Notes: a model not told the origin generated them from the sequence alone. Counted from the first letter of the stretch, positions 453 through 56,080 are shown. The stretch: DNA of 64,000 bases from Acidimicrobiales bacterium (GCA_049437325.1 JBMTIM010000007.1:10818-74817); one strand, 5' to 3'. Made by a program: numbers and translations.

Positions 453-678
453 CGCCCGTCCCTCCAGCGATCGCCGCCAGGCTCGACACCGTCCTTCAGG
501 CCACTCACCGTATCCCTTCCCGGACCAATGCCCGAACGCCCGGGCCGCGACCATCACCGACCAGGTCGTCATGGGCAGTGTCGGGCACCACGGTGCGGGC
601 CAGCGCGGCACCCGTCTCCGACGGAGCGGGGCGATCGGACATTCGGAGCAAACCCCAACCCTGCCCTACGCTCACACG

Positions 679-9412: not shown

Positions 9413-9416
9413 CGGA

Positions 9417-10277: not shown

Positions 10278-10372
10278 ACGCGCCGAAGCGTAGGCGACGG
10301 TCGGAGCGCTTCGAAAAAACCAGCCAATTGGATGGGTTCCCGATCTGGACCATGTCCAGATCATCTGGATAG

Positions 10373-23477: not shown

Positions 23478-26400
23478 TTGGATGCCGTTTCGAGCGCTGG
23501 TCACAGTGGTGGACCCCAGTCGGCCGGCACCGCTGGTTCGGTGCCGGTTCCGGTCGCCGTCGGCCCTCGCCGTGAGGCGGTGCACGAACCGACCCGCACG
23601 CAGCGGCTGATCTGGGCGAGTCAGCGTCGCTATGACGGGATCCCACTGGCCAACATGGGAGAGCGGGTGCGTATCCGCGGACCGCTCGACCCTCGTCGTT
23701 TCGTGGCGGCGTTCGATGCAGTCGTCCGAACGGTGGACGTGCTGCGTTCGGTCGTGGAACCCGACGGGTCGCGTATCGGCGTTCTGGCAGCACCCCCGGC
23801 CCAAACGCTCGTACTCGACGTGCCGATCGACGAACTCGAGGAATGGTCGGCCGAACGGATCGCGCAACCCATCGATGCAACCACCTGCGTGTACGACTCT
23901 GTTCTGCTCCACCATGGCGACGACGACTGGACGTGGTGGCTCGACATTCACCACATCGCCATCGATGCGTGGGGGGCAGCACGACTCGCCGAGGCCGTCT
24001 CGACCGCCTACCGCCACGACGGAGCTCCCCACGACGCTGATCTGGACAACGTCGTAACGGGATCATTCTTCGACTCGGTCGGCCCCGACGACGAGGCGGG
24101 CCCAACTCGAGCGGCAGAGTGGGCACAGGACGCACAGACAGCCGGACCGCAAGCCCCACTCACCCCGTACGGACCTCGAGGTGAGAGAACGACACGGGTC
24201 GATCGTTGCCCACTCCCCAGAGACGGCTGGCACGAGTCTCTGGATGAGGCGCTGCAAGGTCCGTACCGGGCCCTTTCTCCAGAACTCAGCCTTCTGGCCC
24301 TGTCGGCAATGGCAACAACGATTGCGATGCGACGGTTCGACGGCCGGTCGAGTGTGGTGGTCGGTGTCCCGGTCCATCATCGATCGGGCCGCTCCGGGAG
24401 CACGGCGATCGGGCCGATGATGGAGCTCTACCCGATGGTCGTCACCTTCGACGACAACGAGACCCATCGGGAGATGTTTGCTCGCACGGTCCGGTCGGTG
24501 ATGCAGGTCTTGCGAAGGGCTCGCCCGGGAGAGAGTCCCGACACGCCGTTCGAGATCGTGTTGAACGTCACCACAGCCCGGTGGGACACCTTCGCCGGCT
24601 ATCCGGCCCGGCGTGACTGGGTGCGATCGGGTCACGTCGAGCCGAACCACGCCATCCGCGTGCAGGTCTTCGACGAATTCGATCCATCGGTCGAGGGTGA
24701 CCACGTCTTGCGTTGGGAGCTGGACCTCAACCGCAGTCTTTCGATCGACGGTTCACACCGTGCCCTGCCGCGGCACTTCGCTGCGATCCTGCAGGGGATC
24801 CTCGACCCGCCTGCCGATCAGGCCGGTCGGACGGCTGTTGTCGACAACCACGAGCGGAAGGATCTTGCGGCGCTCAACCCACGACCGCTGGTTCGCAGCG
24901 TCGATCGCCCGGTCCATGACGTGATTCGTGAGCGCCTGACCGACACCCCCGACGACATCGTGGTCGAACACGGTGCCGTCACCATCACCGGGTCTGAGTT
25001 CGATCGACGAGCCGACGCACTTGCCCACCGACTCGTCGCCGACGGGCTTCGCCTCGGAGATCCGGTCGGACTGCGCATGGGGCGAAGCATCGAGGTCCTG
25101 ATCGCTGTCCACGGAGTGCTGCGAGCCGGTGGGCGGTTCGTGTTTCTCGACCCTGCAGACCCGGTCGGTCGGCACGAGACGATTGCCGCCGATGCGGGTC
25201 TGTTCACGATTCTCGATCGCCTCCCGTCCGAGGCGGCCACCGATTCAGACACCACCGACGCTCCCGGCCTCCCGACGGTCAACCTCGACGACGGGGCATA
25301 CATCCTGTACACGTCGGGCTCGACCGGGCTGCCGAAAGGGGTGCCGATCTCTCATCGGGGACTCGCCGACTACCTCGACTTCGCGGTCGAGTCGTACTGC
25401 GACCCGGCGAACCCTCCGTGGGTGGCACTGCACTCGGCACTCGTGTTCGACCTGTCCATCACCAGTGTTTTCCTTTCGATGCTGACCGGTGGTCGAACGG
25501 TCGTCTTCGACACCGATCCGGTCGAGGCGCTCGGCCAGATCAGTCGAGATCCCCGAATCACGTTCCTGAAGGGCACGCCGTCACAGCTCGAGATCCTCAC
25601 CCGCGTGGCGGATGGCCCACTGTCGATCGACACCTTCGTCGTGGGCGGAGAAGCGTTCCGACGCCCTGTGGCAGACCGGGTCCGTGTCCAATGTGCTGGA
25701 ACGGTCCGGATCTTCAACGAGTACGGCCCCACCGAAGCGGTGGTCGGCTGCATGATCCATGAGTACGACCCTGCGAGCGACATCGGTGTCGACGTTCCGA
25801 TCGGGCATGCTGCGCCAGGTAGCCGTCTCGTCGTCCTCGACGCGCTGGGTGAGGTTGCACCACCGGGCGTCTGGGGCGAACTCTTCGTGCACCGCCCCGG
25901 GATGGCGACCGGCTATCTCAACCGTCCGGAGCTGAGCCTCGAGCGGTTCGGGCCGCCGCCTGTCACCGACGACGATCGACTGGTGCTCGGCGACGACGAG
26001 ACCCTCCTTCATTCCACGGTCTGGTATCGCACCGGCGACCGCGTCCGAGTGGAACGTCTCGGTGTACTCGTGTACGGCGGCCGAGAGGACGACCAACTCA
26101 AGGTCAACGGCATCCGACTCGAGCCGGCCGAAGTCGAAGCCGCTCTGGTCTCCCATCCGGGGATCGACAACGCACTGGTGCGGGTGTGGCAGCCCACCGA
26201 CGCGGCCAACCGCATCGGTGTTCGACGGTGTGCACAGTGCGGTCTCGGTGTCGACGTCCCCGGGGTGGACATCGACGCCCTCGGTGTGTGCTCCGTGTGT
26301 CGGCAGTTCGAAGAAGTCGAACCACAGACGAGAGATTGGTTCCGAACCCCCGCCGACCTCGACGACCGCCTACGAACGGCTCGCGAGCGACGCACCGGGG

Positions 26401-29400
26401 ACTACGACTGCCTGCACCTGCTGTCGGGGGGGAAGGACTCGACCTATGCCCTGTATCAACTCGTCGAGCGGGGCTGGCAGGTCCACGCCCTGACCCTCGA
26501 CAACGGGTTCATCTCCGAGGGCGCGAAAGAAAACGTTCGACGGAGCATCGCCGACCTGGGGATCACCCACGAGTTCGTAACGACCGACGCAATGAACGCC
26601 ATCTTCGCCGACAGCCTCGATCGCTACTCCAACGTCTGCCAAGGTTGCTACAAGACGATCTACACCCTCGCCGTTGCCCGAGCCGAAGCGCTTGGCATCC
26701 CGGTGATCGTCACCGGCCTGTCGCGCGGGCAGTTCTTCGAAACCCGACTCGTCCCCCACCAATTCGAAGCGGGCCGTTTCGATCCCGCCGCCATCGACGC
26801 CACCGTGCTCGAGGCTCGACGGGTGTACCACGCAACCCACGATGCCGTGACCGAACTGTTGCCGGAGCAACGCGTCTTCGACGACCCGACCGTGCTCGAC
26901 CGCCTCGAGTTCCTGGACTTCTACCGCTACGTCGACGTGCCCTTGCACGAGCTCTACGACTTCCTCGAGCACCGTGCTCCATGGGTCCGGCCAGCCGACA
27001 CAGGACGATCGACGAACTGTCTCATCAACGTGGCCGGTATCCGAGTCCACCAGCAAGAGCGCGGCTACCACAACTACGCCGAGCCCTACAGCTGGGACGT
27101 CAGACTCGGCCACAAGACCCGCGACGAAGCCCTCGAGGAACTCGACGATCTCATCGATGAGACCGAGGTCACCGCCATTCTCGGGGAGATCGGATACGAA
27201 CCGAAGACGCAAGGCGTCCTGACCGCGTGGTACCAAAGCGTCGACGGCGTCGATCTCGACCCTGACGAACTTCGCCGATCGCTGCGCGACCGGCTGCCGG
27301 CCCACGCCATTCCCTCTGCATTCGTGCGGCTCGACGAGGTACCACTCGCTGCGAGCGCCAAAGCAGACCCCGATCTTCTTCCCGCCCCGACCCGCTTCCA
27401 CCGTCGAGGTGGAGCCGGTGTGCGGCCCGAGACCCCGACCGAGGAACGGCTCGTCACCATCTGGGGCGAGCTTCTCGGACTCGACTCGGTCGGGATCACC
27501 GACGACTTCTTCGACCTCGGGGGCGCCTCACTCGACGCCCTCGCTGTCGTCGCCCGAATCGACGCCGCGTTCGGCACGGATCTCCCCGACGCTGCGGTGT
27601 TCCGAGCCCGGACGATCGCAGAACTTGCCGCCATCGTGGATGGTGCCGAAGCGATCGATGCCCCGACACCTGTCGACCTACCCGACGGCCCGCTCCCCCT
27701 CTCCCCCGGAGAGGAGTACATGCTCTTCGAGTACCGGACCGACCCGATCAATCCCCGGTACAACGTCACCCGGCTCTACACCCTCGAAGGTCACGACGAG
27801 CCGATCGACATCGAGCAGCTCGAAACCGCACTTCGCGATGTGGTCATGCACCACGAAACCCTGCACACCTGTTTCGACCGCAACCGCACAACCCTCGACC
27901 GCACGACTGCCCTGCGCTTCGTCGACCTCGGCGCAGTGCGCCACGACGAACTCGACGACTGGTCGACCCGAATCCAGCGCGAACCATTCGACCTCGACGC
28001 CGGACCGCTGGTGCGGGCCCACGTCGGTGATCTCGGGGACGGGCGCGTTGCACTCTTCCTCGGCATGCATCACATCGTTCTCGGATCAGGCACGTTCGAC
28101 ACGTTCTGGAGCCAGATCACCCGCCGCGTGGCAGGGGAGGCCCTCCCCGACCTCCCGGTCAGCTACGCCCACCACAGCTTGCAGCAGCGGCGCCGGCACA
28201 CCGAAGACGACACCAGTGCACGATTCTGGGCCGACAGCTTCGGCGAGGCCGAAGCGGCATCGCTCCGGCTCGCCGTCGACGACACCGAACCCGACGGGTA
28301 CCTCGTCGCCTCGTCATCGGTCACTGTTGCGGAGATGAACGCCGTGGGGCGCACGGCGTTCTCGACCGCCCTGGCATCGGCCGGCATCGTCGTGTCGACG
28401 TTCTCCGGGTCGGGACAGGTCCAGATCGGGATCACAGCGTCGTCGAACGATCGCCCCGACACCGCCGAGGTAATCGGCTACTACCTGAACCCGATCGCAC
28501 TCTCGCTCTCGGTCGAGGCCAACGACACGTTCACCGACTTGGTCGGTCAGGCTGCCGACACGATGGAGGCGGCACTACCGCACCGGACGTACCCCTTCGC
28601 CTGGGTCGTTCGCGACGCCCGCGACGCCGGCCGCCCCGTACCCGACGTGTCGGTGATGCTTGCCTACGAGCGCATCGACCAGCCGACCTATCCGGGTGCA
28701 ACCGCCGAGCAACGGATCCTCGCCACCGGCTCGTCGGTCGCCGATGTCACCTTCTTCGTCCAAGAGCGCGGGGACGACATCCGCCTGGCCCTCGAGTACC
28801 GCGGTTCGGTCGTGAGCGAGCAGGCTGCCGAGCGACTGCTCGCCGCCTTCCGGACCACGCTGGAAGACGGTGTCCGGAATCCGACCAGGCACATCGCCCA
28901 CCTCACCGAACCCCATCGGGGAGATGATCTCGATGGGCCAGCGCTCGACGACACCGCACTGGTGCTGGAACGCCTGATCGGCCACATCGACACGACTCCG
29001 ACTGCAGCTGCAGTGGCGGACGCGACCGGCCGTGTACTCGACTACCGCAGTCTCGGGCGAGCCGTCGATGCCACAGCGGCCGCAGTGATCACAGCGCTCG
29101 ACGGCGTGCAACCGAAGAGGGTCGGTGTGGCGGTGGCCCGATCGATCGAGATGGTCGTCGGACTCTACGGAGCTCAGGTCGCCGGAGGTGCCGCCGTCCC
29201 GCTCGATCCAACCCTGCCCGACACCCGTCTCGCTGCCATCGCCAACGCAGCCGAGCTCGATGTCGTCATCACCGACGATCCGGACCGCCACCGTCGGTGG
29301 GCACCGCACACCGTGGCCGTTGCTGGTCCGACCGAAGGTGATACGGCCTCACTGGTCGAGCGGGTGCGCACGATCGACGGATCCGACGACAGTTACGTGA

Positions 29401-31496
29401 TCTTCACGTCGGGTTCGACGGGCGAGCCTCGCGGTGTTGCGGTGACCCACGCCAACCTGGCTGCGAGCACGGCGGCACGGGATGTCTGGTTCGACGGACG
29501 TCCGGATCGTTTCCTGGTCACCTCGAGTCCGGGATTCGACAGTTCAGTCGTCGGCCTCTACTGGCCTCTCGCCACCGGCGGCACCGTGGTCGTGCCCGGC
29601 GACGACGACGTGCGCAACGTCGATCGCCTCGGATCACTGATCGAGTCGCTCGACATCACCCACACGCTGATGGTGCCGAGCCTTGCCAGCGCTCTGCTCG
29701 AACGAGCGCCGACCGCCGTCGCCGGACTCACGGTGGCCATCGTGGCCGGCGAAGCATGTCCACCGGCAGTGGTCGAACGCCATCACGAAATCGCTCCAGC
29801 TGTTGCCCTCATCAACGAGTACGGTCCCACCGAGGCCACGGTCTGGTCGACGGTGCATCGACTCACCCACGGGGACGACCCCGTCCCGATCGGGCGCCCG
29901 ATTCCAGGTGCCACGGCCCGCGTCGTCGGTGCCGACGGCTCCGCGTCACCGGCGGAGGTGGCGGGTGAGTTGTGGATTGCGGGTCCCGGTGTGACGGCCG
30001 GGTACCTGAACGACCCGGACGCCACCGCAGAGCGATTCGTGGAGGCCGACGGTCGCCGGTGGTACCGCACCGGCGACCTCGTGCGCGCGGTCGGCGGCGT
30101 GCTTCGCTTCCTCGGACGGGTCGATGATCAGCTCAATGTGGGTGGCGTTCGACTCGAACCGGCCGAGGTCGAACGATTGCTCGACACCATCGACGGCATC
30201 ACCGCATCAGTGGTCGTCGCCGTCGGCGAGCCGCCCCTCTTGGTCGCCCACCTCGAGACGGATGGTCCGATCGAGGAGGCACACCTCCGTGCCCATCTCG
30301 GTGAGCGGCTGCCAGCGACTGCCGTTCCCCGCCGATTCGTCGCCCACCCCTCCCTGCCTCGGACCCAGAACGGCAAACTCGACCGCCATGCCGCCGCCGA
30401 GCTCGCAGTGCCGAGCCCGTCGGCCGCCCCGGAGATCACTGGGGGGACCGCAACCGAGCGAGCGGTGCTCGAAGCCTGGAGCACGGTGCTCGCCCCCACC
30501 CAGATCGACCCTGACACCGACTTCTTCGCGGCCGGGGGAGACTCGCTCACCGCGGTGGCGCTCGTCACCCGAATCGGTGATGCGCTCGGACGCACGATTC
30601 CGATCTCGACCCTGCTCGCCGGCCCATCGCCAACTGCGATGGTTCAACTCCTCGAGGCGGGCGATCGATCGTCGAGACCCTTCACCACCGTGCGAATGCA
30701 GTCCGGTGCACCCGACAGTCCTCTCGTACTCATCACACCCGCCTGGTTCAGCATTTTCGGCTACAGGGACATGGTCGAGGCATTCTCCGCCGACATCGAG
30801 GTCATCGCTCTCGACTACAACCCCGAGGCCAGCATGGCCCCGATCCTGACGGTCCCTCAGATCGTGACGGCGATGGAACCAGCCCTCGACGACCTTCCCA
30901 GTGGGAAGCGACCGGTGGTGGTGCTGGGCTGGTCGATCGGCGGTGTCGTTGCAGCCGAACTCGCCACCCGACTGCTCGAAGCGGGACGGCCGGTCGATCG
31001 CCTGGTACTCGTCGACACCATCTTCCCGACCGTCGACCGGGCACAGTGGTCGGTGCGGTGGTCGTATCGATGGTGGACGGCCAAGTCGTTGCTTCGCCCG
31101 GAGGGCGTGGCTGAACTACGCGAAGAAGTGTGGAGGTTCATCCGGCGACGGTTACCCACACCGATCGATCGAGCGATCCGGTGGGTGACTCGGGAGGCGT
31201 CGACGACGCCCGACGACGCAGCGCCCGCGGCCCCCGCACAGGCCGCGGTCGTCGCTGCGCCCGTGGGAGAGGTTCCCGAACAGGCGAACTACTTCGAGCC
31301 TCGACCACTCGAACTGCCGGTCACCTTCTATCGTGCATCCGGATCGAATCCAGGACACACCAGCAAGCTGTGGCGCACCATCACACCTGACTTTGACGAG
31401 GTCGTCGTCAAAGGGAGGCACAGGACTGTCAATTCGATCATGGATGCGGGTCGGGTCGGTCAGATCACCGCCGACATCGAACGACGGCTGCGCTGA
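23478..31496 (+). CDS. Non-ribosomal peptide synthetase, two modules: C-A(interrupted)-T-C-A-T-TE
   Basis: 2672 aa. C1: HHIAIDAWG (from 23949). A1: YILYTSGSTGLPKGV (25299), FNEYGPTEA, YRTGDRVRV, GREDDQLKVNGIRLEPAEVE, then the insert, then LPAHAIPSAF (A9) and PLAASAKAD (A10 Lys). T1: DLGGASLDAL (Ser codon 27528). C2: MHHIVLGSG (28065). A2: YVIFTSGSTGEPRGV (29394), INEYGPTEA, YRTGDLVR, LPRTQNGKLDR. T2: AAGGDSLTAV (Ser codon 30543). TE: GWSIGG (Ser codon 30933). The TTG start at 23478 is uncertain; in-frame GTGs lie downstream. Confidence 0.95.
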   Translation: MDAVSSAGHSGGPQSAGTAGSVPVPVAVGPRREAVHEPTRTQRLIWASQRRYDGIPLANMGERVRIRGPLDPRRFVAAFDAVVRTVDVLRSVVEPDGSRIGVLAAPPAQTLVLDVPIDELEEWSAERIAQPIDATTCVYDSVLLHHGDDDWTWWLDIHHIAIDAWGAARLAEAVSTAYRHDGAPHDADLDNVVTGSFFDSVGPDDEAGPTRAAEWAQDAQTAGPQAPLTPYGPRGERTTRVDRCPLPRDGWHESLDEALQGPYRALSPELSLLALSAMATTIAMRRFDGRSSVVVGVPVHHRSGRSGSTAIGPMMELYPMVVTFDDNETHREMFARTVRSVMQVLRRARPGESPDTPFEIVLNVTTARWDTFAGYPARRDWVRSGHVEPNHAIRVQVFDEFDPSVEGDHVLRWELDLNRSLSIDGSHRALPRHFAAILQGILDPPADQAGRTAVVDNHERKDLAALNPRPLVRSVDRPVHDVIRERLTDTPDDIVVEHGAVTITGSEFDRRADALAHRLVADGLRLGDPVGLRMGRSIEVLIAVHGVLRAGGRFVFLDPADPVGRHETIAADAGLFTILDRLPSEAATDSDTTDAPGLPTVNLDDGAYILYTSGSTGLPKGVPISHRGLADYLDFAVESYCDPANPPWVALHSALVFDLSITSVFLSMLTGGRTVVFDTDPVEALGQISRDPRITFLKGTPSQLEILTRVADGPLSIDTFVVGGEAFRRPVADRVRVQCAGTVRIFNEYGPTEAVVGCMIHEYDPASDIGVDVPIGHAAPGSRLVVLDALGEVAPPGVWGELFVHRPGMATGYLNRPELSLERFGPPPVTDDDRLVLGDDETLLHSTVWYRTGDRVRVERLGVLVYGGREDDQLKVNGIRLEPAEVEAALVSHPGIDNALVRVWQPTDAANRIGVRRCAQCGLGVDVPGVDIDALGVCSVCRQFEEVEPQTRDWFRTPADLDDRLRTARERRTGDYDCLHLLSGGKDSTYALYQLVERGWQVHALTLDNGFISEGAKENVRRSIADLGITHEFVTTDAMNAIFADSLDRYSNVCQGCYKTIYTLAVARAEALGIPVIVTGLSRGQFFETRLVPHQFEAGRFDPAAIDATVLEARRVYHATHDAVTELLPEQRVFDDPTVLDRLEFLDFYRYVDVPLHELYDFLEHRAPWVRPADTGRSTNCLINVAGIRVHQQERGYHNYAEPYSWDVRLGHKTRDEALEELDDLIDETEVTAILGEIGYEPKTQGVLTAWYQSVDGVDLDPDELRRSLRDRLPAHAIPSAFVRLDEVPLAASAKADPDLLPAPTRFHRRGGAGVRPETPTEERLVTIWGELLGLDSVGITDDFFDLGGASLDALAVVARIDAAFGTDLPDAAVFRARTIAELAAIVDGAEAIDAPTPVDLPDGPLPLSPGEEYMLFEYRTDPINPRYNVTRLYTLEGHDEPIDIEQLETALRDVVMHHETLHTCFDRNRTTLDRTTALRFVDLGAVRHDELDDWSTRIQREPFDLDAGPLVRAHVGDLGDGRVALFLGMHHIVLGSGTFDTFWSQITRRVAGEALPDLPVSYAHHSLQQRRRHTEDDTSARFWADSFGEAEAASLRLAVDDTEPDGYLVASSSVTVAEMNAVGRTAFSTALASAGIVVSTFSGSGQVQIGITASSNDRPDTAEVIGYYLNPIALSLSVEANDTFTDLVGQAADTMEAALPHRTYPFAWVVRDARDAGRPVPDVSVMLAYERIDQPTYPGATAEQRILATGSSVADVTFFVQERGDDIRLALEYRGSVVSEQAAERLLAAFRTTLEDGVRNPTRHIAHLTEPHRGDDLDGPALDDTALVLERLIGHIDTTPTAAAVADATGRVLDYRSLGRAVDATAAAVITALDGVQPKRVGVAVARSIEMVVGLYGAQVAGGAAVPLDPTLPDTRLAAIANAAELDVVITDDPDRHRRWAPHTVAVAGPTEGDTASLVERVRTIDGSDDSYVIFTSGSTGEPRGVAVTHANLAASTAARDVWFDGRPDRFLVTSSPGFDSSVVGLYWPLATGGTVVVPGDDDVRNVDRLGSLIESLDITHTLMVPSLASALLERAPTAVAGLTVAIVAGEACPPAVVERHHEIAPAVALINEYGPTEATVWSTVHRLTHGDDPVPIGRPIPGATARVVGADGSASPAEVAGELWIAGPGVTAGYLNDPDATAERFVEADGRRWYRTGDLVRAVGGVLRFLGRVDDQLNVGGVRLEPAEVERLLDTIDGITASVVVAVGEPPLLVAHLETDGPIEEAHLRAHLGERLPATAVPRRFVAHPSLPRTQNGKLDRHAAAELAVPSPSAAPEITGGTATERAVLEAWSTVLAPTQIDPDTDFFAAGGDSLTAVALVTRIGDALGRTIPISTLLAGPSPTAMVQLLEAGDRSSRPFTTVRMQSGAPDSPLVLITPAWFSIFGYRDMVEAFSADIEVIALDYNPEASMAPILTVPQIVTAMEPALDDLPSGKRPVVVLGWSIGGVVAAELATRLLEAGRPVDRLVLVDTIFPTVDRAQWSVRWSYRWWTAKSLLRPEGVAELREEVWRFIRRRLPTPIDRAIRWVTREASTTPDDAAPAAPAQAAVVAAPVGEVPEQANYFEPRPLELPVTFYRASGSNPGHTSKLWRTITPDFDEVVVKGRHRTVNSIMDAGRVGQITADIERRLR
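26220..27273 (+). other. PP-loop ATP-pyrophosphatase / amidotransferase-like domain embedded in NRPS adenylation domain 1
   Basis: Zinc-ribbon CAQCGLGVDVPGVDIDALGVCSVCRQF, then DYDCLHLLSGGKDSTYALYQLVERGWQVHALTLDNGF (SGGxDS PP-loop; Ser codon at 26424), CQGCYKT and a C-terminal WDVRLGHKTRDEALEEL. The pattern matches my recollection of the WbpG/PseA-type N-acetyl-sugar amidotransferase family. Confidence 0.7.
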
Positions 31497-31777: not shown

Positions 31778-33370
31778 CTACCGGTCGGTCCCGTGGTCTC
31801 CTCGGTCATCCCCCACGCCGACCGCACGACCGACCGACCGCCTGTCGACCTTGCCGGTTCCTGTCCGCGGCAAGTCGTCGAGACCGACGACGCGGGACGG
31901 CACGGCATAGCGCGGGAGCGTCGCAGCAAGCTGACGGATCAGGTCGGCGTCACGGCCGTCCACCGTCGCAGCCTCCGGCGACACGACGGCGACGAGATGG
32001 TCGTCACCGCTCGCAGGGCGGTCGACCAGCACTGCGGCAGCATCGATCCCGTCGATGTCGAGGAGGGCTGCCTCGACCGCCTCGACCTCGACGCGGTGTC
32101 CACGAACCTTGACCTGATTGTCGACACGACCCACGAAGACGAGGTTCCCATCGGACCGCTCCGCAATCAGATCGCCCGTGCGGTACCAACGTCGGCCATC
32201 CTCTTCTGCAATGGACCGTGCATCGAGATCCGGGCGGTTCCAGTACCCGCGCATCATGGTGTCGGAACTGACCAGCAATTCTCCGGGTTCACCCGGGGCC
32301 ACCGGCCCGCCCGTCTCGTCGACCAACCGAAGTACAGCGCCGCTCCACGCTCGCCCGATCGGAATCGGGGCATCGTCCGTCGGTGGGGTGTCGAGGTTGT
32401 AGACGGTGCACTGATTGACCTCGGCCGGGCCGTAGATGTTCGAAACGCGAGCGGACGGAATGGCTCGCATGGCCCGAGCAAGCGCCGCTGGAGGGAACGG
32501 TTCACCCCCGTACAGAATCCAACGCAAGCTCTCGAGATCGTGATCCTCGATTGCGCCACGGGCAACCATCTGGTCGATGACGTACGGCACCGAGTACCAC
32601 ACGGTGATGCGCTCGTCTGCAATGAGCTTCGCCAAACTCGCCGGGAATCGCAGCACACCGTCGGGCACCACCAGGACTGACGCACCGACGAGCGGTGCTG
32701 CGTACAGCTCGAAGGTGGACTGATCGAAATGCAGCGGAGCGATGTTGGCGAGCCGGTCACTCGAGTCGATGGTGTAGGTCTCCGCTGCAAGCCGTGCATA
32801 GGTGAGGCCACTGCGGTGGGTGTGGGCCATGCCCTTCGGCGTGCCGGTGGAACCGGACGTGTACATGAGGTAGGCGAGATCGTCAGGATCGACACCCGGC
32901 CGTGGTGCCGGTTCGAGCCCGGCCAGACGGTCAGCTCCGACCGTCGACGAACCGGGACCCGAAACACTGTCGGCCAGCGGCGTGACCACGCCGGTGACCG
33001 ATGTTCCCGCCATGATCGCCACAAGCACATCTCCCGATGCAGCGGTGACGAGCGCCGACGCGCCGGCATCACGCAGTACCGCGTTGGTCGCCGCCACAGG
33101 TGCGAGCGCATCGAGGGGCACCATGACAGCACCGGCACGCAGCACACCATGAACCGATGCGAACGAGTGCACCGACTTGTGCAGATGGACTCCCACCCGG
33201 TCGCCGGGCTTCACTCCCGATCGCAAGAGCGCAGTCGCGATTCGACCAGCGAGATCGCGGTACTCGCCCCAGCTCAGACGGCTCCGACCGTCGGTGATCG
33301 CTTCGGTGTCCGCACCGGCGATCGTGACTGCTGTGTCGAGCAGGTCGTCGAGCGTCTCGATTTCGGTCAC
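31778..33370 (-). CDS. Free-standing adenylation enzyme (amino acid--carrier protein ligase, DltA-like architecture)
   Basis: 530 aa with a GTG start. Motifs: YLMYTSGSTGTPKGM, NIYGPAEV, YRTGDLI, GRVDNQVKVRGHRVEVEAVE and LPRTGTGKVDRR. Confidence 0.9.
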   Translation of the reverse strand: MTEIETLDDLLDTAVTIAGADTEAITDGRSRLSWGEYRDLAGRIATALLRSGVKPGDRVGVHLHKSVHSFASVHGVLRAGAVMVPLDALAPVAATNAVLRDAGASALVTAASGDVLVAIMAGTSVTGVVTPLADSVSGPGSSTVGADRLAGLEPAPRPGVDPDDLAYLMYTSGSTGTPKGMAHTHRSGLTYARLAAETYTIDSSDRLANIAPLHFDQSTFELYAAPLVGASVLVVPDGVLRFPASLAKLIADERITVWYSVPYVIDQMVARGAIEDHDLESLRWILYGGEPFPPAALARAMRAIPSARVSNIYGPAEVNQCTVYNLDTPPTDDAPIPIGRAWSGAVLRLVDETGGPVAPGEPGELLVSSDTMMRGYWNRPDLDARSIAEEDGRRWYRTGDLIAERSDGNLVFVGRVDNQVKVRGHRVEVEAVEAALLDIDGIDAAAVLVDRPASGDDHLVAVVSPEAATVDGRDADLIRQLAATLPRYAVPSRVVGLDDLPRTGTGKVDRRSVGRAVGVGDDRGDHGTDR

Positions 33371-33412: not shown

Positions 33413-34402
33413 ATGTCTACCCGATCCGACCCCGATGTGTCGCTGACCGCGAACGGCTTCGACGTCGATCGATCAGCCGGTCGATTGGGTGAACTCGAGC
33501 CGGCCAACGACCTGCTCGGTGATCCTCGAGCGCTTCGGGCAACGATGCAGGAACGCGGCTACCTGTTCTTTCGCGAGCTGATCGACCCGAAGATCGTGAG
33601 CGAGGCCCGCCTCGAGGTACTCGGCAAGTACGCCGTGCTCGGCGAGATCGACGATCGCCACCCGATCGAAGACGGCATTGCGGGGGATGGGGAGGCTGTG
33701 CCCGCAGTCAACCTCCGCGCATTTTCGGAGAGCATCCGCTCTGGGTACTGGTACCGGCGGGTCACCGACGGGCCGGAGGTCCTCGGAGTTGCAGGAGATC
33801 TGCTCGACGGTGTCGTCCAGATCTTCGCCATGCGATGGCCCCGGTTCGTCCGGCCCGGAGAGGGCTGTGGCTTTCACTGTGACGGCCCGTACATGAATCG
33901 AGGGACCGACCGCATTTTCTCCGCCTGGATCCCACTCGGCGACGTCACGCCGACGGAGGGCGCATTGATGGTGCTCGAGAACAGTCATCGCTCCGAGCGA
34001 CTGCTCTCGGGGTACCTTCGGGCCGATGCTGACCGCGATGGGCTGCAGTGGCTCGACGACGATCCCGTATCGGTGCAGGAACAGTACGGGGACCGATGGC
34101 TGACCACCGATTTCGAGGCAGGCGACGTCCTGTTCTTCGGCATGCACACACTGCATGGAGCGTTCGACAACCGGTCACCGGTGGGCCGATGCAGGCTTTC
34201 CTCGGACACTCGGTACCAGCGAGCCGACGAGCCGGCCGATCCGCGCTGGAACGGCGCTGACTTCGAGGGACACGGCGGAAGCCGCGTGTTCTATCCAGGC
34301 CTGGGCCGATGGAACAACGCCGACTTCCAAGACGAATGGAAGGATGTCGACGACCGAGGGCGCATCGTCCTGCGAGAGGAGACGGATCGTGACCGAAACT
34401 GA
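33413..34402 (+). CDS. Phytanoyl-CoA dioxygenase (PhyH)-family Fe(II)/2OG oxygenase
   Basis: Track ORF 32729..34402, trimmed to the ATG at 33413 (MSTRSDPDVSL...). It contains GFHCDG (HxD) and a distal HTLHGA. Confidence 0.7.
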   Translation: MSTRSDPDVSLTANGFDVDRSAGRLGELEPANDLLGDPRALRATMQERGYLFFRELIDPKIVSEARLEVLGKYAVLGEIDDRHPIEDGIAGDGEAVPAVNLRAFSESIRSGYWYRRVTDGPEVLGVAGDLLDGVVQIFAMRWPRFVRPGEGCGFHCDGPYMNRGTDRIFSAWIPLGDVTPTEGALMVLENSHRSERLLSGYLRADADRDGLQWLDDDPVSVQEQYGDRWLTTDFEAGDVLFFGMHTLHGAFDNRSPVGRCRLSSDTRYQRADEPADPRWNGADFEGHGGSRVFYPGLGRWNNADFQDEWKDVDDRGRIVLREETDRDRN

Positions 34403-35573
34403 CGCCGAACTCCTCGCCCTCGCCCGTGCGATGACCGACCTCGACCACCCGCTGAAGCGTGAGGCCGCGGACTGGGCAGCTGCCGAACTGGGTCAGGCCG
34501 ACCTCGTCGATGCCGATCATCGGTCCGTATTCGCGATCGACGACTGGCGGCGCTGTGCCGATCGCGGCATCCATCGTCTGATGGTTCCCGAGGAACACGG
34601 TGGCCTCGGAGCCGATCGGGCCACGACACTGCTCACCCTCGAGGGCCTCGGCTACGGCTGCAACGACAATGGGCTCACCTTTGCGCTTGCGAGCCAGATC
34701 GTGAGCTCACAGGTGACCCTCGTGCGATTCGCCACCGACGAACAGCGCGAACGCTGGCTGCCAGGGCTTCTGGACGGATCGATGTTCGCCGCACTGGCGA
34801 TGACCGAACCCGGCTCGGGTTCGGACGCGTTCTCCCTGCAAGCCACGGCAGCGAAGCAGGCTGACGGGACGTACCTGCTGAACGGTCACAAGGCCTATCT
34901 GACCTTCGGACCCGTTGCGGATCTGTGCATTGCCTTTGCGTCGACCCGCCCGGAGGCCGGAAGTTGGGGTGTTTCGGCGTTCCTCGTTCCCATGGATCTC
35001 CCCGGTGTCGTCCAGGGTCCGTTGCGCGAGAAGATGGGCATGCGCACCACCCCCTTCGGTGACATCGAATTTCGCGATGTGGTCCTCCCAGCCGACGCCC
35101 TGCTGAGTCGCGAGGGGGCCGGCGCAAGCATCTTCAGCGCGGTCCTCGACATCGAACGGGCCTACGTGTTCGCTCCGCAGATCGGCGCGATGGAACGGCA
35201 ACTGCACGACGCCACGGCGTACGCCCTCGAGCGCGAGCAGGGTGGTCAACCCATCGCCCGCTACCAGGCGGTCTCTCACCGCCTTGTCGCCATGAAAGAG
35301 CGGCATGAGCACTGCCGGTTGCTGCTCTACCGGGCGGCGATGGCCGACGTCACAGGCCGAGGAATGTCGCTCGCTGCCTCTCTGGCCAAAATCGCAACCG
35401 CTGACGCCGGAATCGCCTCGTCGATCGATGCCGCCCTGCTCCACGGCGCGAAAGGGTACGTTTCGGAGTTCGAGATCGAACGCCAGCTCCGTGATGCCGT
35501 CGGCGGGTTGGTCTACTCAGGCACCACCGACGTGCTGCGCAACATCGTCGCTCGGCACCTCGGCGTCGTCTGA
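34389..35573 (+). CDS. Acyl-CoA dehydrogenase-family flavoenzyme (probably acting on an acyl/aminoacyl-S-carrier protein)
   Basis: The GTG at 34389 overlaps the PhyH stop. 394 aa. Motifs: AMTEPGSGSD, LNGHKAYLT and a C-terminal VYSGTTDVLRN in place of the canonical YEGT. Confidence 0.85.
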   Translation: MTETDAELLALARAMTDLDHPLKREAADWAAAELGQADLVDADHRSVFAIDDWRRCADRGIHRLMVPEEHGGLGADRATTLLTLEGLGYGCNDNGLTFALASQIVSSQVTLVRFATDEQRERWLPGLLDGSMFAALAMTEPGSGSDAFSLQATAAKQADGTYLLNGHKAYLTFGPVADLCIAFASTRPEAGSWGVSAFLVPMDLPGVVQGPLREKMGMRTTPFGDIEFRDVVLPADALLSREGAGASIFSAVLDIERAYVFAPQIGAMERQLHDATAYALEREQGGQPIARYQAVSHRLVAMKERHEHCRLLLYRAAMADVTGRGMSLAASLAKIATADAGIASSIDAALLHGAKGYVSEFEIERQLRDAVGGLVYSGTTDVLRNIVARHLGVV

Positions 35574-36896
35574 TCCTGCGGGTACCCCCACCGGCAGCAA
35601 CCCGTCGCGTTCGACAGCGATCTGCCGAACTGCGGCAGCGATACCCGTGAAGACCATCGCCACCCAGAACGAGCGAGGCCAGTAGACGACCTTGAGGATG
35701 ATGTCGTTGATGCCTGCATCAACCTCGAACACTCGCTCCACCACCCAGACGCCACTCAACGCAGCGAGTCCCAGCGAACTGATCACCAGAATCGGTCGAT
35801 ACAGCCGGGTCTGGCGGAGCATGAAGAGACCCGGGAACGCAATGGCGATGATGACGAGTTGTCCGATCTCGATACCCACGTTTCGCCCGAGCAGGGAGAC
35901 CAACTGCGTGCCTCGGCCGATGTCGAGTTCCTGTACGAGCCCGGCGAAGCCCATACCGTGAAAGAGCCCGAACCCGAAGGCGAGCGCCCATTCACGATGC
36001 CCGAGCACCGGGCGAAGGTTGTGGAGTGCTGCTGCACCGATCGACAGCGCGATCAGCGTCTCCACCAACTGGGAGGGCGGCAGCGGGATGAGGTCGAGCC
36101 CGGCGAGCGTGAACGTGATCGAGTGGGCGATCGTGAACATCGTGGCCACCAGCACAAGTCGCCCGAGTGAGTAGGTGAAGCTCGGTGACGGGCTCCAGAT
36201 CGAGCCCGTGAGGAGCAGCACCGAGGTCAGCAGCAGCACGAGGATGAAGAAGATGTGGTCCGGACCGGTCTTGATGTGGTCGATACCGAGGTCGATGCTG
36301 TACCGGAAGTTGCGCCACTGGTTGGTCTCACCGAAGTCGATTTCGCCACCCGGTCGTTCTGCGGTGACGATCAGGAGTTCGTTGGCCTCCTCTTCGACGA
36401 TCCCTCTCTTCCAGTCGTTGGACACCAGCACGATGTTGTTGCGGCCCGGAATCTCGTCGAGAAACGGCGCGAAGACGGTCTCCACCACCTGTGGGACTGC
36501 GTCGAGCGGCATGGCGACGGTGAACGGCAGGATCACATAGCCGTTGCCGTTCACCCCAACCCCCTCCTCGTCGAGGAGTTCGAACCCGTCGAAGGTCAGC
36601 TCCCACACCTCGCCGTCGGCCCCGATCGCGCTCTTGTCCGTTGCGTACCGCTGGAGACGGTCGAGATTGGCCTCGACCTCGGCACTGATGTCGGCGACCG
36701 AACCCGACAGACGCAGGCCGAACACCGTACGAATATCGGGGTAGGGCATCTCGACGCGGCCACTCAGGGAGGAGTCACCGACATCCATGTAGAGATACGA
36801 CTCGTCGTTGCGGTGCGCACCTGCCGGAGAGGCGGACGACACCACAATGGTGACGGCAGCCGCCGCCCCGATGAGGACCCGCACAAACCGCAACAC
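35517..36896 (-). CDS. HupE/UreJ-family membrane protein with an N-terminal secreted domain
   Basis: Signal peptide MLRFVRVLIGAAAAVTIVVSSASPAGA. HupE signature GIDHIKTGPDHIFFIL and FGLFHGMGFAG. TTG start preceded by GGGAGG. Confidence 0.7.
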   Translation of the reverse strand: MLRFVRVLIGAAAAVTIVVSSASPAGAHRNDESYLYMDVGDSSLSGRVEMPYPDIRTVFGLRLSGSVADISAEVEANLDRLQRYATDKSAIGADGEVWELTFDGFELLDEEGVGVNGNGYVILPFTVAMPLDAVPQVVETVFAPFLDEIPGRNNIVLVSNDWKRGIVEEEANELLIVTAERPGGEIDFGETNQWRNFRYSIDLGIDHIKTGPDHIFFILVLLLTSVLLLTGSIWSPSPSFTYSLGRLVLVATMFTIAHSITFTLAGLDLIPLPPSQLVETLIALSIGAAALHNLRPVLGHREWALAFGFGLFHGMGFAGLVQELDIGRGTQLVSLLGRNVGIEIGQLVIIAIAFPGLFMLRQTRLYRPILVISSLGLAALSGVWVVERVFEVDAGINDIILKVVYWPRSFWVAMVFTGIAAAVRQIAVERDGLLPVGVPAGSDDAEVPSDDVAQHVGGA

Positions 36897-37045: not shown

Positions 37046-38080
37046 CTATGCCTTGGTTCGCGTCGCCGACCAGTGCGACAGCGCACCAGTTGGTTGGAAT
37101 CGCTCAGGGCGGTCCTCTGCGGCGAGCGTGTCGGTGGCGAGCCACAAGCGTTTGAGCCAACGCACCTGACCGTGCTCGGGATCATCCTCGTACTCCCGAC
37201 GGCCGTGCAAGACGTGATAGTTGTTCACGAACTGCATGTCACCCGGCTGGAACCGCATCTCGACCCAGTGCTCGGGATCGTCCACGAGCGCCGAGTACGC
37301 CTTCATCGCAGCCAACTGCATTTCGGTGAGGCGGGGTGTCGTGTCGTGCCGCTGGGAGGCCAGGACGAACTGCGGGATGTAGCGGATGAACAGACGATCA
37401 CCATGCCGGGTGAACGCAGGAACGTGATAGTAGGGCCTCCCTCCGTCCGGCTGCTCACCCCGATAGTCGTAGGGCAGTCCCTCGTAGAGCACAGCGGCCA
37501 GTTCGGGATCCGACTCGGCCAACAGGTTGTGGCAGAGCAGGGCATTGGAGATGAGGCTCTCGCCACCGGCGATGCCGGGATCGAGACACAGCAGACCGAC
37601 CAGATCGGAACCGTCGGAGTGGAATCCGAGCGCCGAACCACCCATCTCGTACCCGCGGATGTTCGGGTCGTCGGGGGACTTGCCGGCATCTTTGACGTCA
37701 CCGAGCAGGTGACCGCGGGCGTTCTGGGCCCACGGGATACCGAGGTGCATGCCGATTCCCCAGTAGATCCACGACGCATCGTCGAAGCCGAGACGATCGA
37801 CCGGGAGCCCGCAGATGCGATGGAAGCCCCGTCCGTTGATCAGTTCGTCGGCCATCTCGTCGAGCACCGACGCAAACGTCGGAAGCGGAAAGTGCTCCGC
37901 TCCCACGTCGAGCACTTCGTCGGTTGCCGCGCGTGCGAACGCCAAGGCCGCCTCGAGTTCGGCGATCTCGGTGTCGGTCAGGTGATGCGTCCACATCGAA
38001 GCATCGGCGACATCGGCGGCACGCCATTCGGCATGACGCTCGAGCGGTTCCACACGGTCGGGGGTCATGGTGGCGATCAT
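37046..38080 (-). CDS. TauD/TfdA-family Fe(II)/2OG dioxygenase
   Basis: 344 aa with an LGFHSDGSD (HxD) motif. ATGA overlap with the upstream aminoacylase gene. Confidence 0.75.
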   Translation of the reverse strand: MIATMTPDRVEPLERHAEWRAADVADASMWTHHLTDTEIAELEAALAFARAATDEVLDVGAEHFPLPTFASVLDEMADELINGRGFHRICGLPVDRLGFDDASWIYWGIGMHLGIPWAQNARGHLLGDVKDAGKSPDDPNIRGYEMGGSALGFHSDGSDLVGLLCLDPGIAGGESLISNALLCHNLLAESDPELAAVLYEGLPYDYRGEQPDGGRPYYHVPAFTRHGDRLFIRYIPQFVLASQRHDTTPRLTEMQLAAMKAYSALVDDPEHWVEMRFQPGDMQFVNNYHVLHGRREYEDDPEHGQVRWLKRLWLATDTLAAEDRPERFQPTGALSHWSATRTKA

Positions 38081-39813
38081 GAGGACACTCCAGTACTCGC
38101 CGGGGCGGGTTGCGGTCCGCGTACGAGGCGGCCCGGTAATTCGCCGGTCGCCTCGCCGTCGCGATACGTCTCGACACCGGCGACGAAGGTGTGGCGGTAC
38201 CCATCAGCTCGCTGCACGATGCGACGACCGCCAGCCGGCAGGTCGTAGAGCAATTCGGGCTGGCGGACGCGAAGGCGATCGAAGTCGATCACGTTGAGGT
38301 CGGCTCGGTATCCCGGCGCGATCACTCCACGATCCTCGAGGCCCACGACCGACGCTGTGTCGGCACACTGCCGCTTGATGAGGAACTCGAGTTCGATCTT
38401 CTCTCCGTTGCGATCACGGCCCCAGTGTTGCAGCAGGGTCGTGGGGAAGGAGCCGTCGCAGATCGTGCCGACATGGGCGCCACCGTCGGACAACGCCGGG
38501 ACGGTGTACGGATGTGTCAGTAGCTCGCGGGTGCCGTCGAGATTGCCCTTGCCGAAGTTCGAGAACGGCACCCACAGCATGGCGGTCCCGTCGTTTTCCA
38601 GCATTGCGTCGAGCGCCACCTCCGCCGCCGCTCGGTCGGTGCGCTGCGCGATTGCCAGAATCGAGTCACTCGGATCGGGCTCGTAGTTCGGATCCTCTCC
38701 CAAGGCGAACATGATCTCGTACTTCTCGATCAGGCGACCGCCGACGGCCTGCATCTCCTTGCCCCCAGCCGCGGCGAGCAACCGGGCTCGAACGTCGCGG
38801 TCGCGCAGCATCTCGTTTCGTTCGGATCGCGGAAGATCGGCAATCTCTCGATACACCGGATTGACAAGGAAGGGGTTGAGCGTGCACTCGAAGCCCAACA
38901 ACACACCGATCGGGCGCACGGCGGTCTGACCGGTGACACAGAGGTCGTCCTCGCGGGCGTGCTCGATGTGTTCGAGAATGCGCCGGTGGTAGTCGTAACC
39001 ACGCGGCGACTCGACCAGCGTGAAGCTCACGGGACGTCCGGACGACTCGGTCATCGCCCGGACGAGGGCAAATTCGGCATCGATGTCGGCGAAGTCGCTC
39101 ACGAGTTGCAACACGCCCCGACCGGTGGCCCCGATCGCCTCGGCGATCCCGACGAGTTCGTCGCGGGCTGCGGTCAGCGTGGGAGTCGGCTCACCGAGGG
39201 ACGTCTTGTGATTCTGGGTGCGACTGGTGGTGAACCCGAGGAATCCGGCGTCGACACCCTCGGCTGCGAGTCGTCCCATCTCGGCGATGTCGTCTGGTGT
39301 TGCGTCCTCACCCTTTGCACCGCGCTCCCCCATCACGTGCAACCGCAGCGCCGCATGTGGGACCTGTGCCGCAATGTCCATGTCCTTCGGCCCATCGAGC
39401 GCGTCGAGATAGTCCCCGAGCGTGTTCCACTCCCAGGTCAGTCCCTCGTGCAGCGCCGTTCCAGGAATGTCCTCGACCCCCTCCATCAACTGCACGAGAC
39501 GTTCGTGGTCGGCGTCATGGACCGGCGCGAACCCCACCCCACAGTTGCCGAAAACCACGGTTGTGACACCGTGCCACGAGGACGGCTGCATCGTTGCCTC
39601 CCACGTTGCTTGGCCGTCGTAGTGCGTATGGATGTCGACGAATCCAGGTGCAACGAGCATGCCTGTCGCATCGATCTCGCGCCTGCCGGACCCTTCGATC
39701 ACACCAACCGCCGTGACGAAACCCCCATCGATCGCCACGTCGGTGACCCGCCGTGGCGAGCCGGTACCGTCGATGAGCGTGCCACCTCGTATGACCAGAT
39801 CGTGCGATGCCAT
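38077..39813 (-). CDS. N-acyl-D-amino-acid deacylase (D-aminoacylase)-family amidohydrolase
   Basis: Track ORF trimmed to the ATG at 39813 ([20 protein letters not shown]...). It has the [12 protein letters not shown] metal-binding motif. 578 aa. Confidence 0.8.
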
Positions 39814-39863
39814 ACCTCCATGATGCCGCTTGCTAGGTCTCGGCGTCACGTTCGTGGCAACCT

Positions 39864-40637
39864 GTGTCCGTGTCACGCCCTTCACCGTTTCACGCCGCCG
39901 CCGAGATCCGTGCAATCGGTGAGTTCGGTTCGTTTGCGCTTGGGGCGCCAATGCTCCGCCGATTCCTCCCGACGGGCAATCGCCCCGTCTTCGTCATGCC
40001 GGGCTTTCTCGCCGACGACGCCAGCACCGCCCCACTTCGCAGAACGCTCGACTCCCTCGGACACGTCACCTACGGCTGGGACCTCGGTCGCAATCTTGGC
40101 CCTACTCCTGACATCCTCGACGGGATCGTGGAACGCCTCGACGACCTCCATCACGCACACGGTGAGATCGACATCATCGGATGGAGCCTTGGCGGCATCT
40201 TTGGCCGCGAACTCGCTCGGGTGGCCCCACACACGATCCGTCAGGTCATCACGCTGGGCAGCCCGTTCCAGATCGCGACGCCCACGGACAGCAACGCGTC
40301 GGCGGCGTACCGATCGCTCAGCCATCTTCACGCACCCGGACTCGAGATGCGGGTACCGGCGTACGTCCGCGAACCCCTCGCGGTTCCTGCGACATCGATC
40401 TACACCCGCAGCGACGGTGTGGTCCAGTGGCACCACTGCCTCAACCACGACGAGGAGCACACCGAGAACGTCGAGGTGTACGGCAGCCATTGTGGACTGG
40501 GATTCAACCTCGCTGCCCTGATCGTGGTGGCCGACCGTCTGGCCCAGCCAGCGGACAGCTGGAGGCCATTCCGGGTCCGACGAGCGCTCCGGGGCCTCTT
40601 CCCCACCGCACCGACCTACCGAGTGCCGGCGGCCTGA
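39864..40637 (+). CDS. Alpha/beta-fold hydrolase
   Basis: 257 aa with a GTG start and the GWSLGG nucleophile elbow. Confidence 0.6.
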   Translation: MSVSRPSPFHAAAEIRAIGEFGSFALGAPMLRRFLPTGNRPVFVMPGFLADDASTAPLRRTLDSLGHVTYGWDLGRNLGPTPDILDGIVERLDDLHHAHGEIDIIGWSLGGIFGRELARVAPHTIRQVITLGSPFQIATPTDSNASAAYRSLSHLHAPGLEMRVPAYVREPLAVPATSIYTRSDGVVQWHHCLNHDEEHTENVEVYGSHCGLGFNLAALIVVADRLAQPADSWRPFRVRRALRGLFPTAPTYRVPAA

Positions 40638-52389: not shown

Positions 52390-52440
52390 CTCTGTGCGTG
52401 TACCTCTCTGCGCCGGTGTCGCCGGTTGGTGAGACCTCGA

Positions 52441-54498: not shown

Positions 54499-54702
54499 GG
54501 TTCATCTCCAAAACCCCTCTGTGAGCAGGCAAAATCGAGGGTTTCAGGGGTTCTCGGCGCCCGTGTCGAGCGCTGGTCGAGAGGGCCGTTCACGGTCCTG
54601 ACATTCTACCAGTTACACGGGTGTGATTCGTGTCAGACGAGGCCCGTGATTCCGGCTTGCAGACCCGGGTTTTAGGGTCGTCTCGGTGACCCTGAAACCC
54701 GG
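54499..54702 (-). promoter_or_regulatory. gyrB leader carrying four copies of a GGGUUU(Y)AGGG-type element that can form alternative stems
   Basis: Forward-strand copies: CCAAAACCCC 54508-54517, GGGTTTCAGGGG 54538-54549, GGGTTTTAGGGT 54667-54678 and ACCCTGAAACCC 54689-54700. A 15-bp hairpin (54665-54702, one mismatch) spans the upstream stop codon. Confidence 0.4.
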
Positions 54703-56074: not shown

Positions 56075-56080
56075 CGAGGC

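Follow-up and report, generated by a model that had tools for sequence, protein, structure and literature searches.

The stretch of DNA analysed here, hereafter the window, comprises 64,000 nucleotides (nt) from an Acidimicrobiales bacterium (GCA_049437325.1, JBMTIM010000007.1:10818-74817; positions are counted from its first nucleotide) and encodes a bimodular non-ribosomal peptide synthetase (NRPS), in which the adenylation (A) domain of the first module is interrupted by a zinc-ribbon and PP-loop domain. This insert is probably a copy of the AMDH domain known from the NRPSs CysH and AlbIV. The synthetase and its domains (C, condensation; T, carrier; TE, thioesterase) are organised as follows.

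23478..31496, plus strand: NRPS gene, 2672 amino acids (aa), domain order C0-A1(AMDH)-T1-C2-A2-T2-TE; a single open reading frame (ORF) with two Pfam Condensation, two AMP-binding, two PP-binding and one Thioesterase match
23598..24887, plus strand: N-terminal condensation domain C0 (Pfam Condensation, 64.4 bits, aa 41-350; motif HHIAIDAW at aa 158)
24927..26195, plus strand: A1 core with the C-terminal subdomain of A1 as far as a8 and the next strand ALVRVWQP (Pfam AMP-binding)
26196..27215, plus strand: probable AMDH domain, a zinc-ribbon and PP-loop insert with a fold like that of the N-acetyl-sugar amidotransferases (NASATs), aa 907-1246 (CysH homology, TIGR03573, AlphaFold2 model, Foldseek)
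27216..27413, plus strand: rest of the A1 C-terminal subdomain with strand VLTAWYQS, a9 and a10 (motifs; AMP-binding_C regained on excision of the insert)
27420..27650, plus strand: carrier domain T1, serine motif GGASLDA at aa 1348 (Pfam PP-binding; own T-domain hidden Markov model, HMM)
27696..31445, plus strand: module 2 and release, C2, A2 (code DSVLIAEVW), T2 and TE (Pfam; motif reading)

Position of the insert

Pfam analysis of the intact protein identifies Condensation, AMP-binding, PP-binding, Condensation, AMP-binding, AMP-binding_C, PP-binding and Thioesterase in that order, AMP-binding_C being seen in module 2 only. In A1, the a8 motif (GREDDQLKVNGIRLEPAEVE, aa 868-887, nt 26079-26138) is separated by 385 aa from a9 (LPAHAIPSAF, aa 1273-1282), which is followed by the a10 Lys within SAKAD (aa 1293-1297); the corresponding a8-to-a9 spacing in A2 of the same protein is 45 aa, giving a net insertion of about 340 aa. 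When aa 907-1246 (nt 26196-27215) were excised in silico, Pfam recognised AMP-binding, a full AMP-binding_C (profile positions 1-76 of 76, 32.1 bits, cutoff 24.5) and PP-binding. Two family alignments were constructed, one including the flanks from the A and T domains (alignment A1) and one restricted to the insert and used for a profile search of the PDB (alignment A2). In the former, the flanks are aligned with LgrA residues 565-622 and 621-780, on either side of a single loop in the C-terminal subdomain. As judged from the excision and from this alignment, the insertion point is the hairpin loop between a8 and a9, where a catalytic domain is nested with the remaining A-domain motifs intact, as is characteristic of interrupted A domains. 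T1 is the presumed tether of the Asn substrate discussed below.

The initial annotation of this locus, made from the sequence alone, had placed the interruption at 26190-27290 and described about 350 residues after a8, carrying a cysteine ribbon, a PP-loop and a CQGC motif, before a9, a10 and the T domain resume. All these motifs were found in one frame, the coordinates needed little refinement, and the in silico excision bears out that the resumed motifs complete the A domain. A frameshift or an assembly artefact had been raised there as a possible objection. More generally, the insert might be a decayed or structural remnant without catalytic activity, or a product of faulty sequencing or assembly; nothing specific favours this, apart from the split AMP-binding_C of module 1 escaping Pfam in the intact protein, and we regard it as extremely improbable. 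The 2672-aa ORF is continuous and the codon-position GC of the insert equals that of its flanks (GC at third positions, GC3, 0.80), and the same in-frame arrangement occurs in at least 73 independent genomes and in 145 cluster representatives; the insert is thus neither a frameshift nor an assembly artefact. The matches to TIGR03573, to Pfam ThiI and QueC and to CysH given below also rule out a chance resemblance. In addition, the PP-loop and all seven Cys residues described below are invariant across 141 diverged representatives, the architecture recurs among relatives in at least 546 stretches of species-representative genomes, and the structure model is a confident one.

A side observation concerns the condensation domains: the C2 motif at window positions 28068-28091 (aa 1531-1538) reads HHIVLGS, with Gly replacing the Asp of the canonical HHxxxDG, whereas C0 reads HHIAIDAW.

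Motifs and structural relatives

The conserved motifs of the insert, all on the plus strand, are listed below.

26229..26300: tetracysteine ribbon CAQC...GVCSVC (CAQC aa 918-921, CSVC aa 938-941), retained in 141 of 141 family members
26424..26441: PP-loop SGGKDS (aa 983-988), the ATP pyrophosphatase motif and the sole SGGxDS of the window, retained in 141 of 141
26637..26648: CQGC (aa 1054-1057), the first two Cys of a CxxC...C triad, recognised by HMMER alignment to the CxxC of mmLarE and by invariance
27018..27020: Cys1181 within GRSTNC, which completes the triad and is conserved without exception in alignments A1 and A2 and in all 141 representatives

The C-terminal motif RLGHKTRDEALEEL corresponds to aa 1209-1222. 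Profile searches, which the initial annotation had recommended, gave a match of the insert to TIGR03573 (WbuX, N-acetyl sugar amidotransferase; NCBIfam) over positions 3-318 of 344 with an E-value of 2.3e-26, although at 93 bits it lies below the curated cutoff of 203.2. Pfam ThiI and QueC exceed their gathering scores in the PP-loop region only; the QueC match (PF06508) spans profile positions 2-75 of 210, that is, the first 75 or so residues of the Rossmann domain, and does not extend over the full length with the C-terminal Zn site, while TIGR00364 scores 27.9 bits against a cutoff of 150.3. The NASAT signature CxxCXn[GN]xCxxC, which binds Zn in LpNASAT (PMC10607449), is present in the insert together with the SGGxDS PP-loop.

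An AlphaFold2 model of the insert, computed from an alignment of 45 sequences, has a pLDDT of 90.3 and a pTM of 0.85. Its top Foldseek match in the PDB is the Legionella NASAT 8wex_B (E 7.5e-11, TM-score 0.55/0.54), the LpNASAT fold thus ranking first, followed by [4Fe-4S]-LarE, YcfA, TtuA, asparagine synthetase (AsnB) and carbapenam synthetase. The insert is therefore a zinc-ribbon and PP-loop Rossmann domain and a fold relative of the NASATs; the near-complete TIGR03573 match, the NASAT Cys motif and the 8wex structure agree with the assignment to the WbpG/WbuX-type family made in the initial annotation.

Relationship to the AMDH domains of CysH and AlbIV

CysH of the cystobactamid pathway in Cystobacter velatus is a stand-alone NRPS of the type A-AMDH-T (Gross et al. 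2021, Nat Commun, PMC7966384). In vitro, L-Asn-loaded CysH undergoes a loss of 18 Da to give beta-cyano-L-alanine, which is not formed without AMDH, and deletion of AMDH in a heterologous producer abolished all isoasparagine (isoAsn)-linked and cyanoalanine-linked cystobactamids (PMC7966384). AMDH of CysH also isomerises Asn to isoAsn, the outcome depending on prior beta-hydroxylation by CysJ (PMC7966384). The same authors designated SGGKD as 'core region 1' of AMDH and described its mechanism as unknown and without a structural template (PMC7966384). Such a domain had already been suggested for AlbIV of the albicidin pathway (Xanthomonas albilineans), which carries a homolog. A 2022 review termed the domain alpha-ANH-like (PMC8949500).

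BLASTP comparison of the insert with the AMDH of CysH, the latter taken from the Source Data of PMC7966384, gave 47% identity (156/330, E 4e-114). Every family-invariant residue is also present in the CysH domain, and the two have in common SGGKDS, seven Cys residues and the C-terminal block GRSTNC...YHNY...PYSWDVR.

The host domains agree as well. The specificity code of A1 is DLTKVGEVG, of the Asn type, and that of CysH and AlbIV is DLTKIGEVG, as derived by alignment to the N-terminal sequences of the two proteins (for AlbIV, the first 400 or so residues). The Stachelhaus code for Asn is DLTKLGEVGK, and the GrsA reference fragment used for code reading gave, as a self-check, its known code DAWTIAAIC. 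All 73 related host A domains in which the code was readable carry DLTK[VI]GE[VI]G or a one-residue variant. This strict pairing with Asn-specific A domains, likewise observed by Gross et al. (PMC7966384), suggests that the substrate is the Asn carboxamide.

All the sequence-level features of an AMDH domain are thus present, namely homology to CysH, SGGKD, insertion in an Asn-type A domain at the point seen in CysH and AlbIV, and a T domain thereafter. With an estimated probability of about 0.85, the insert is a copy of the AMDH domain of CysH and AlbIV and would act on tethered Asn as the CysH domain does. The initial annotation supposed a PP-loop interruption of an A domain to be uncharacterised; this has been superseded by the deletion of the CysH domain in vivo and its assay in vitro (PMC7966384), and the insert has no novelty as an enzyme type, AMDH having been characterised in 2021. 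Literature searches for later work on the AMDH mechanism or on an iron-sulfur (Fe-S) cluster returned nothing beyond Gross et al. and one review, and none of the literature found by search links NASATs with NRPSs.

The two settings differ in several respects. CysH and AlbIV each stand alone as A-AMDH-T proteins and supply an inactive module in trans, whereas the domain described here acts, if active, in cis within a C-A-T-C-A-T-TE synthetase of the Acidimicrobiia. The surrounding cluster contains a PhyH dioxygenase, a RedW-like dehydrogenase and a stand-alone adenylating enzyme, and lacks both the CysJ/CysQ/CysB set and the p-aminobenzoic acid machinery.

Some considerations weigh against assigning AMDH function to the insert. 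The function is carried over from a homolog at 47% identity; the mechanism of AMDH is itself unproven, its use of ATP not having been separated from that of the A domain (PMC7966384); and the dioxygenase of the present cluster is of the PhyH type, CysJ being of the TauD/SyrP type. Whether a nitrile, isoAsn or both would be formed here cannot be read from the sequence. Moreover, the score below the TIGR03573 cutoff, by which amidotransferase chemistry is not transferable to the insert, makes other chemistry within the clade possible in the same way.

Interrupted A domains with auxiliary inserts are reportedly the subject of a 2015 work by Labby. The domain resembles the M, KR, Ox and MOx inserts of such A domains (Lundy 2020, PMC8341866) in being a tailoring domain nested between a8 and a9 and directed at the residue on the T domain, and differs from them in being an ATP-dependent PP-loop domain. 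This type of insert is omitted from two papers on interrupted A domains (PMC8341866, PMC11355689), in which albicidin, cystobactamid and an amidotransferase-type insert are not mentioned.

Amidotransferase and sulfur-inserting relatives

The structural relationship with NASATs raises the question of whether the insert could be a working amidotransferase, which would adenylate a carbonyl of the tethered residue and add ammonia to give an amidine, as WbpG and WbuX do, or an amide. The NASATs (TIGR03573; WbpG, WbuX, LpNASAT 8wex) and AMDH have the same fold with an N-terminal Zn ribbon and SGGxDS, and are colinear over 315 of 344 profile positions; the E-value, the top-ranking structural match and the tetracysteine motif of PMC10607449 given above are what speaks for an amidotransferase. 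Identity between NASATs and the insert is, however, only about 20% and the score of 93 bits is far under the cutoff of 203.2. NASATs are free-standing proteins of glycan clusters, accompanied by an ammonia-delivering partner and acting on nucleotide sugars, whereas the insert sits inside an NRPS and AMDH has a tethered amino acid as its substrate. The three annotated plasmid NASATs examined have hisH/hisF, AglZ/HisF2 or asnB as neighbours; an ammonia-delivering partner (glutaminase, HisH/HisF or AsnB-like) was not found among the predicted genes of the window, which makes amidination unlikely. The CysH homolog yields the loss of 18 Da and isoAsn, and no amidine, and the invariable Asn specificity of the host A domain indicates a side-chain carboxamide as the substrate. 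An amidotransferase function is thus very improbable. Of the suggestion in the initial annotation that a carbonyl of the tethered residue is activated by ATP, the general idea fits the known chemistry, while amidation or amidination finds no support in the CysH products.

Sulfur insertion is another reaction of related PP-loop enzymes, and the insert might be an Fe-S-dependent enzyme of the kind represented by CtaC of closthioamide, TtuA and [4Fe-4S]-LarE, converting a tethered amide into a thioamide. Its CxxC...C triad is invariant, with the CxxC aligned by HMMER to that of mmLarE-[4Fe-4S]; [4Fe-4S]-LarE, YcfA and TtuA directly follow NASAT in the fold search; CysH purifies as a dark brown protein (PMC7966384); and CtaC is an Fe-S alpha-ANH enzyme acting on carrier-bound substrates (PMC6772006). 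Against this, the CysH assays and the structures of cystobactamid and albicidin show nitrile and isoAsn without incorporation of sulfur, and neither a cysteine desulfurase gene nor one for a sulfur carrier was found in the cluster. We consider thioamide formation most unlikely, and AMDH activity on tethered Asn remains the preferred assignment.

An additional cysteine triad

Beyond the four Cys residues of the ribbon, C1054, C1057 and C1181 (CxGC...GRSTNC) show no variation in alignments A1 and A2 or among the 141 representatives, each drawn from a separate cluster at 50% identity. HMMER aligned the CxxC of this triad with that of the Methanococcus maripaludis LarE, a [4Fe-4S] enzyme, and the CXXC-C arrangement is that of [4Fe-4S] PP-loop enzymes of the TtuA/LarE-Tm type; in the Thermotoga maritima LarE, CXXC-C ligates a [4Fe-4S] cluster (PMC9283937). 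TtuA, TtcA, LarE (T. maritima and M. maripaludis) and CtaC resemble AMDH in having a PP-loop, a CxxC about 65 residues further on and a distal third Cys, and they include the next-best structures after NASAT. They differ in that they transfer sulfur, whereas the products of AMDH are sulfur-free, the brown colour of CysH being the only hint of Fe-S in AMDH. Gross et al., who noted this colour, looked only for the radical-SAM motif CxxCxxxC (PMC7966384). A putative Fe-S site at the AMDH triad is thus a reasonable hypothesis.

The triad is absent from LpNASAT (8wex) and from two of the three plasmid NASATs. The third, encoded on the Rhodobacteraceae plasmid CP049031.1 (locus L082:1510-2715), is a genuine NASAT with hisH/hisF neighbours and has the CxxC and an aligned third Cys. 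The triad is thus not confined to AMDH and, for part of the NASAT family, may be an ancestral feature.

Proposed reaction

A reaction sequence can be suggested by analogy. A1, going by its specificity code, would adenylate L-Asn and load it onto T1, and the phosphopantetheine arm would bring Asn-S-T1 to the AMDH active site. There the PP-loop, using a second ATP, would adenylate the oxygen of the side-chain carboxamide to give an O-AMP imidate, as in the reactions proposed for QueC/ToyM, ArtA, PesC and albicidin. Loss of AMP would produce beta-cyano-L-alanyl-S-T1, or a rearrangement would produce isoasparaginyl-S-T1, as in CysH after beta-hydroxylation; both outcomes are known for CysH only. 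C0 and C2 would then assemble a short acyl- or aminoacyl-dipeptide containing the modified residue, to be released by TE. In this scheme AMDH would be a NASAT relative that no longer needs an ammonia donor, and its extra invariant CxxC...C triad may hold an Fe-S cluster.

ATP-dependent conversion of amide to nitrile through an AMP-imidate has been proposed for QueC/ToyM, ArtA/NitB and PesC (PMC13060819), and for albicidin an amide dehydration has been proposed in a phosphorylation version (PMC8949500). AMDH is like the former enzymes in the proposed adenylation of the amide oxygen and loss of AMP to give a nitrile, and has the PP-loop/alpha-ANH ATP site in common with QueC. It differs from them in that only the PP-loop region aligns and in that they are separate enzymes that modify free substrates or peptides; QueC also amidates, whereas AMDH also isomerises. 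It is a matter of speculation that the PhyH dioxygenase of the present cluster may take the hydroxylating part of CysJ, the families of the two being different.

A bolder proposal is that AMDH is a distinct Fe-S-dependent branch of the PP-loop/NASAT enzymes, in which a [4Fe-4S]-type cluster on the triad, equivalent in position to the cluster ligands of LarE/TtuA, beside the ATP site would serve as a non-redox Lewis acid in amide dehydration and in an Asn-to-isoAsn 'aminomutase' step rather than in sulfur transfer, and, separately, that the Ilumatobacteraceae cluster would direct the synthesis of a nitrile- or isoAsn-containing acyl-dipeptide. We put this forward tentatively and regard it as rather doubtful. 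If true, a cluster on the triad would account for the brown colour of CysH.

Occurrence of the domain

The search of databases for the same A-insert-A architecture, suggested in the initial annotation, showed it to be widespread, with about 570 clusters, mostly of the form C-A(AMDH)-T. A word-indexed search gave 796 matches at E < 1e-5, nearly all with flanks from A or T domains, and an exhaustive phmmer search of 1.84 billion representatives gave 570 clusters (50% identity) at E <= 1e-30. In 100 of the 145 representatives the domain begins near residue 900, and protein lengths peak at about 1400, 1900 and 2700 aa; the in-cis C-A(AMDH)-T arrangement is thus the norm and the stand-alone A-AMDH-T the exception. 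Relatives are encoded in at least 546 stretches of the species-representative genomes. Among the matches listed, the nearest (up to 84%) come from metagenome-assembled genomes of Ilumatobacteraceae and other Acidimicrobiia, and none is from Xanthomonas.

A free-standing AMDH-like protein of 323 aa was observed on the Bacillus thuringiensis HD1002 plasmid NZ_CP009349.1 (330008-330979; locus L084:4001-4972), where it is annotated as '7-cyano-7-deazaguanine synthase'. It is 29% identical to the domain in the window and retains the ribbon, the PP-loop and the CxxC...C triad. Its gene, flanked by an acyl carrier protein gene and by two adenylate-forming enzymes and two peptidyl carrier protein (PCP) genes, is also present on six further Bacillus plasmids of about 359-648 kb, and the protein may carry out the same chemistry in trans.

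Neighbouring genes and their conservation

The genes that follow the NRPS gene in the window include four whose relatives accompany it in other Acidimicrobiia.

31778..33370, minus strand: stand-alone adenylate-forming enzyme, code DQFYLGINQ (TIGR01733, 337.7 bits, cutoff 317.4; syntenic in most Acidimicrobiia loci)
33413..34402, plus strand: PhyH-family Fe(II)/2-oxoglutarate dioxygenase with HxD motif (Pfam PhyH, 57.9 bits)
34389..35573, plus strand: acyl-CoA-dehydrogenase-family enzyme, nearest to the prolyl-PCP dehydrogenases RedW/PigA (NF045652 325 bits and NF053553 318 bits, both under cutoff; synteny)
35517..36896, minus strand: HupE/UreJ_2 membrane protein (Pfam, 132.8 bits; beside the cluster in many Acidimicrobiia loci, up to 66% identity)

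Most Acidimicrobiia loci combine the bimodular NRPS with the adenylating enzyme and the RedW/PigA-like protein, often with HupE/UreJ_2, and PhyH is found in the nearest relatives. In the latter, 18 related Ilumatobacteraceae loci have PhyH copies 70-74% identical to the one described here, directly upstream of the RedW-like dehydrogenase, and the enzyme is a candidate for the hydroxylase of the tethered residue. The PhyH gene was missed by the codon-usage gene caller and found in ORF translations; it forms the 3' part of a long spurious ORF overlapping the opposite-strand gene of the adenylating enzyme. The ORF of the dehydrogenase reaches up to 34155, and 34389 is its probable start.

In the relatives (loci L002-L045) the adenylating gene immediately precedes the NRPS gene on the same strand. 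In the window it follows the NRPS gene and is read from the opposite strand, so that a local rearrangement of the cluster has taken place. A scan for a free-standing carrier protein with the own T-domain HMM and the GxDS motif found none in the window or in five related loci; the adenylating enzyme and the dehydrogenase may therefore make an acyl-CoA or enoyl-acyl-CoA starter for C0 rather than a pyrrolyl-PCP. The HupE/UreJ_2 family is linked to Ni and Co uptake, and this neighbour hints that the product of the cluster could be metal-related.

Just past the cluster, a TauD-family dioxygenase and an Amidohydro_3 protein are encoded in tandem (37046-39951, minus strand). The pair is not syntenic in related loci and probably lies outside the cluster. 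The TauD gene itself (37046-38080) was considered as an analogue of CysJ; it is not syntenic in the relatives, its best matches are unrelated dioxygenases and it is probably unrelated.

Further upstream of the NRPS gene, a HalD-like protein (Halogenase D, PF23169) adjoins a flavin amine-oxidoreductase-like protein (8441-10364, minus strand), and a 2-oxoglutarate-Fe(II) oxygenase gene is located at 571-1683 (plus strand); these are possible tailoring genes of another pathway. Towards the other end, the gene set of the chromosomal origin occupies 49864-63542, with gyrA (49864-52389), gyrB (52441-54498), recF (54989-56074) and dnaA (57416-58789) on the minus strand and a ParA-like ATPase gene (62682-63542) on the plus strand. 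GC content falls from about 0.65 to about 0.59 in this region, with a turn of the cumulative GC skew near 54-56 kb; dnaA is about 25 kb away from the NRPS cluster. The gyrA/gyrB genes are an ordinary housekeeping pair and do not point to a gyrase-targeting product.

Significance

The third Cys triad and the conserved Acidimicrobiia cluster go beyond the literature searched. The 8wex structure, the confident model and the invariant triad together provide testable hypotheses for AMDH, namely an AMP-imidate intermediate and a possible Fe-S site. AMDH is far commoner in the in-cis form C-A(AMDH)-T than in the stand-alone form that has been studied, and it marks a conserved cluster in marine and freshwater Acidimicrobiia. 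The domain is thus a handle for genome mining of natural products containing nitrile or isoasparagine.

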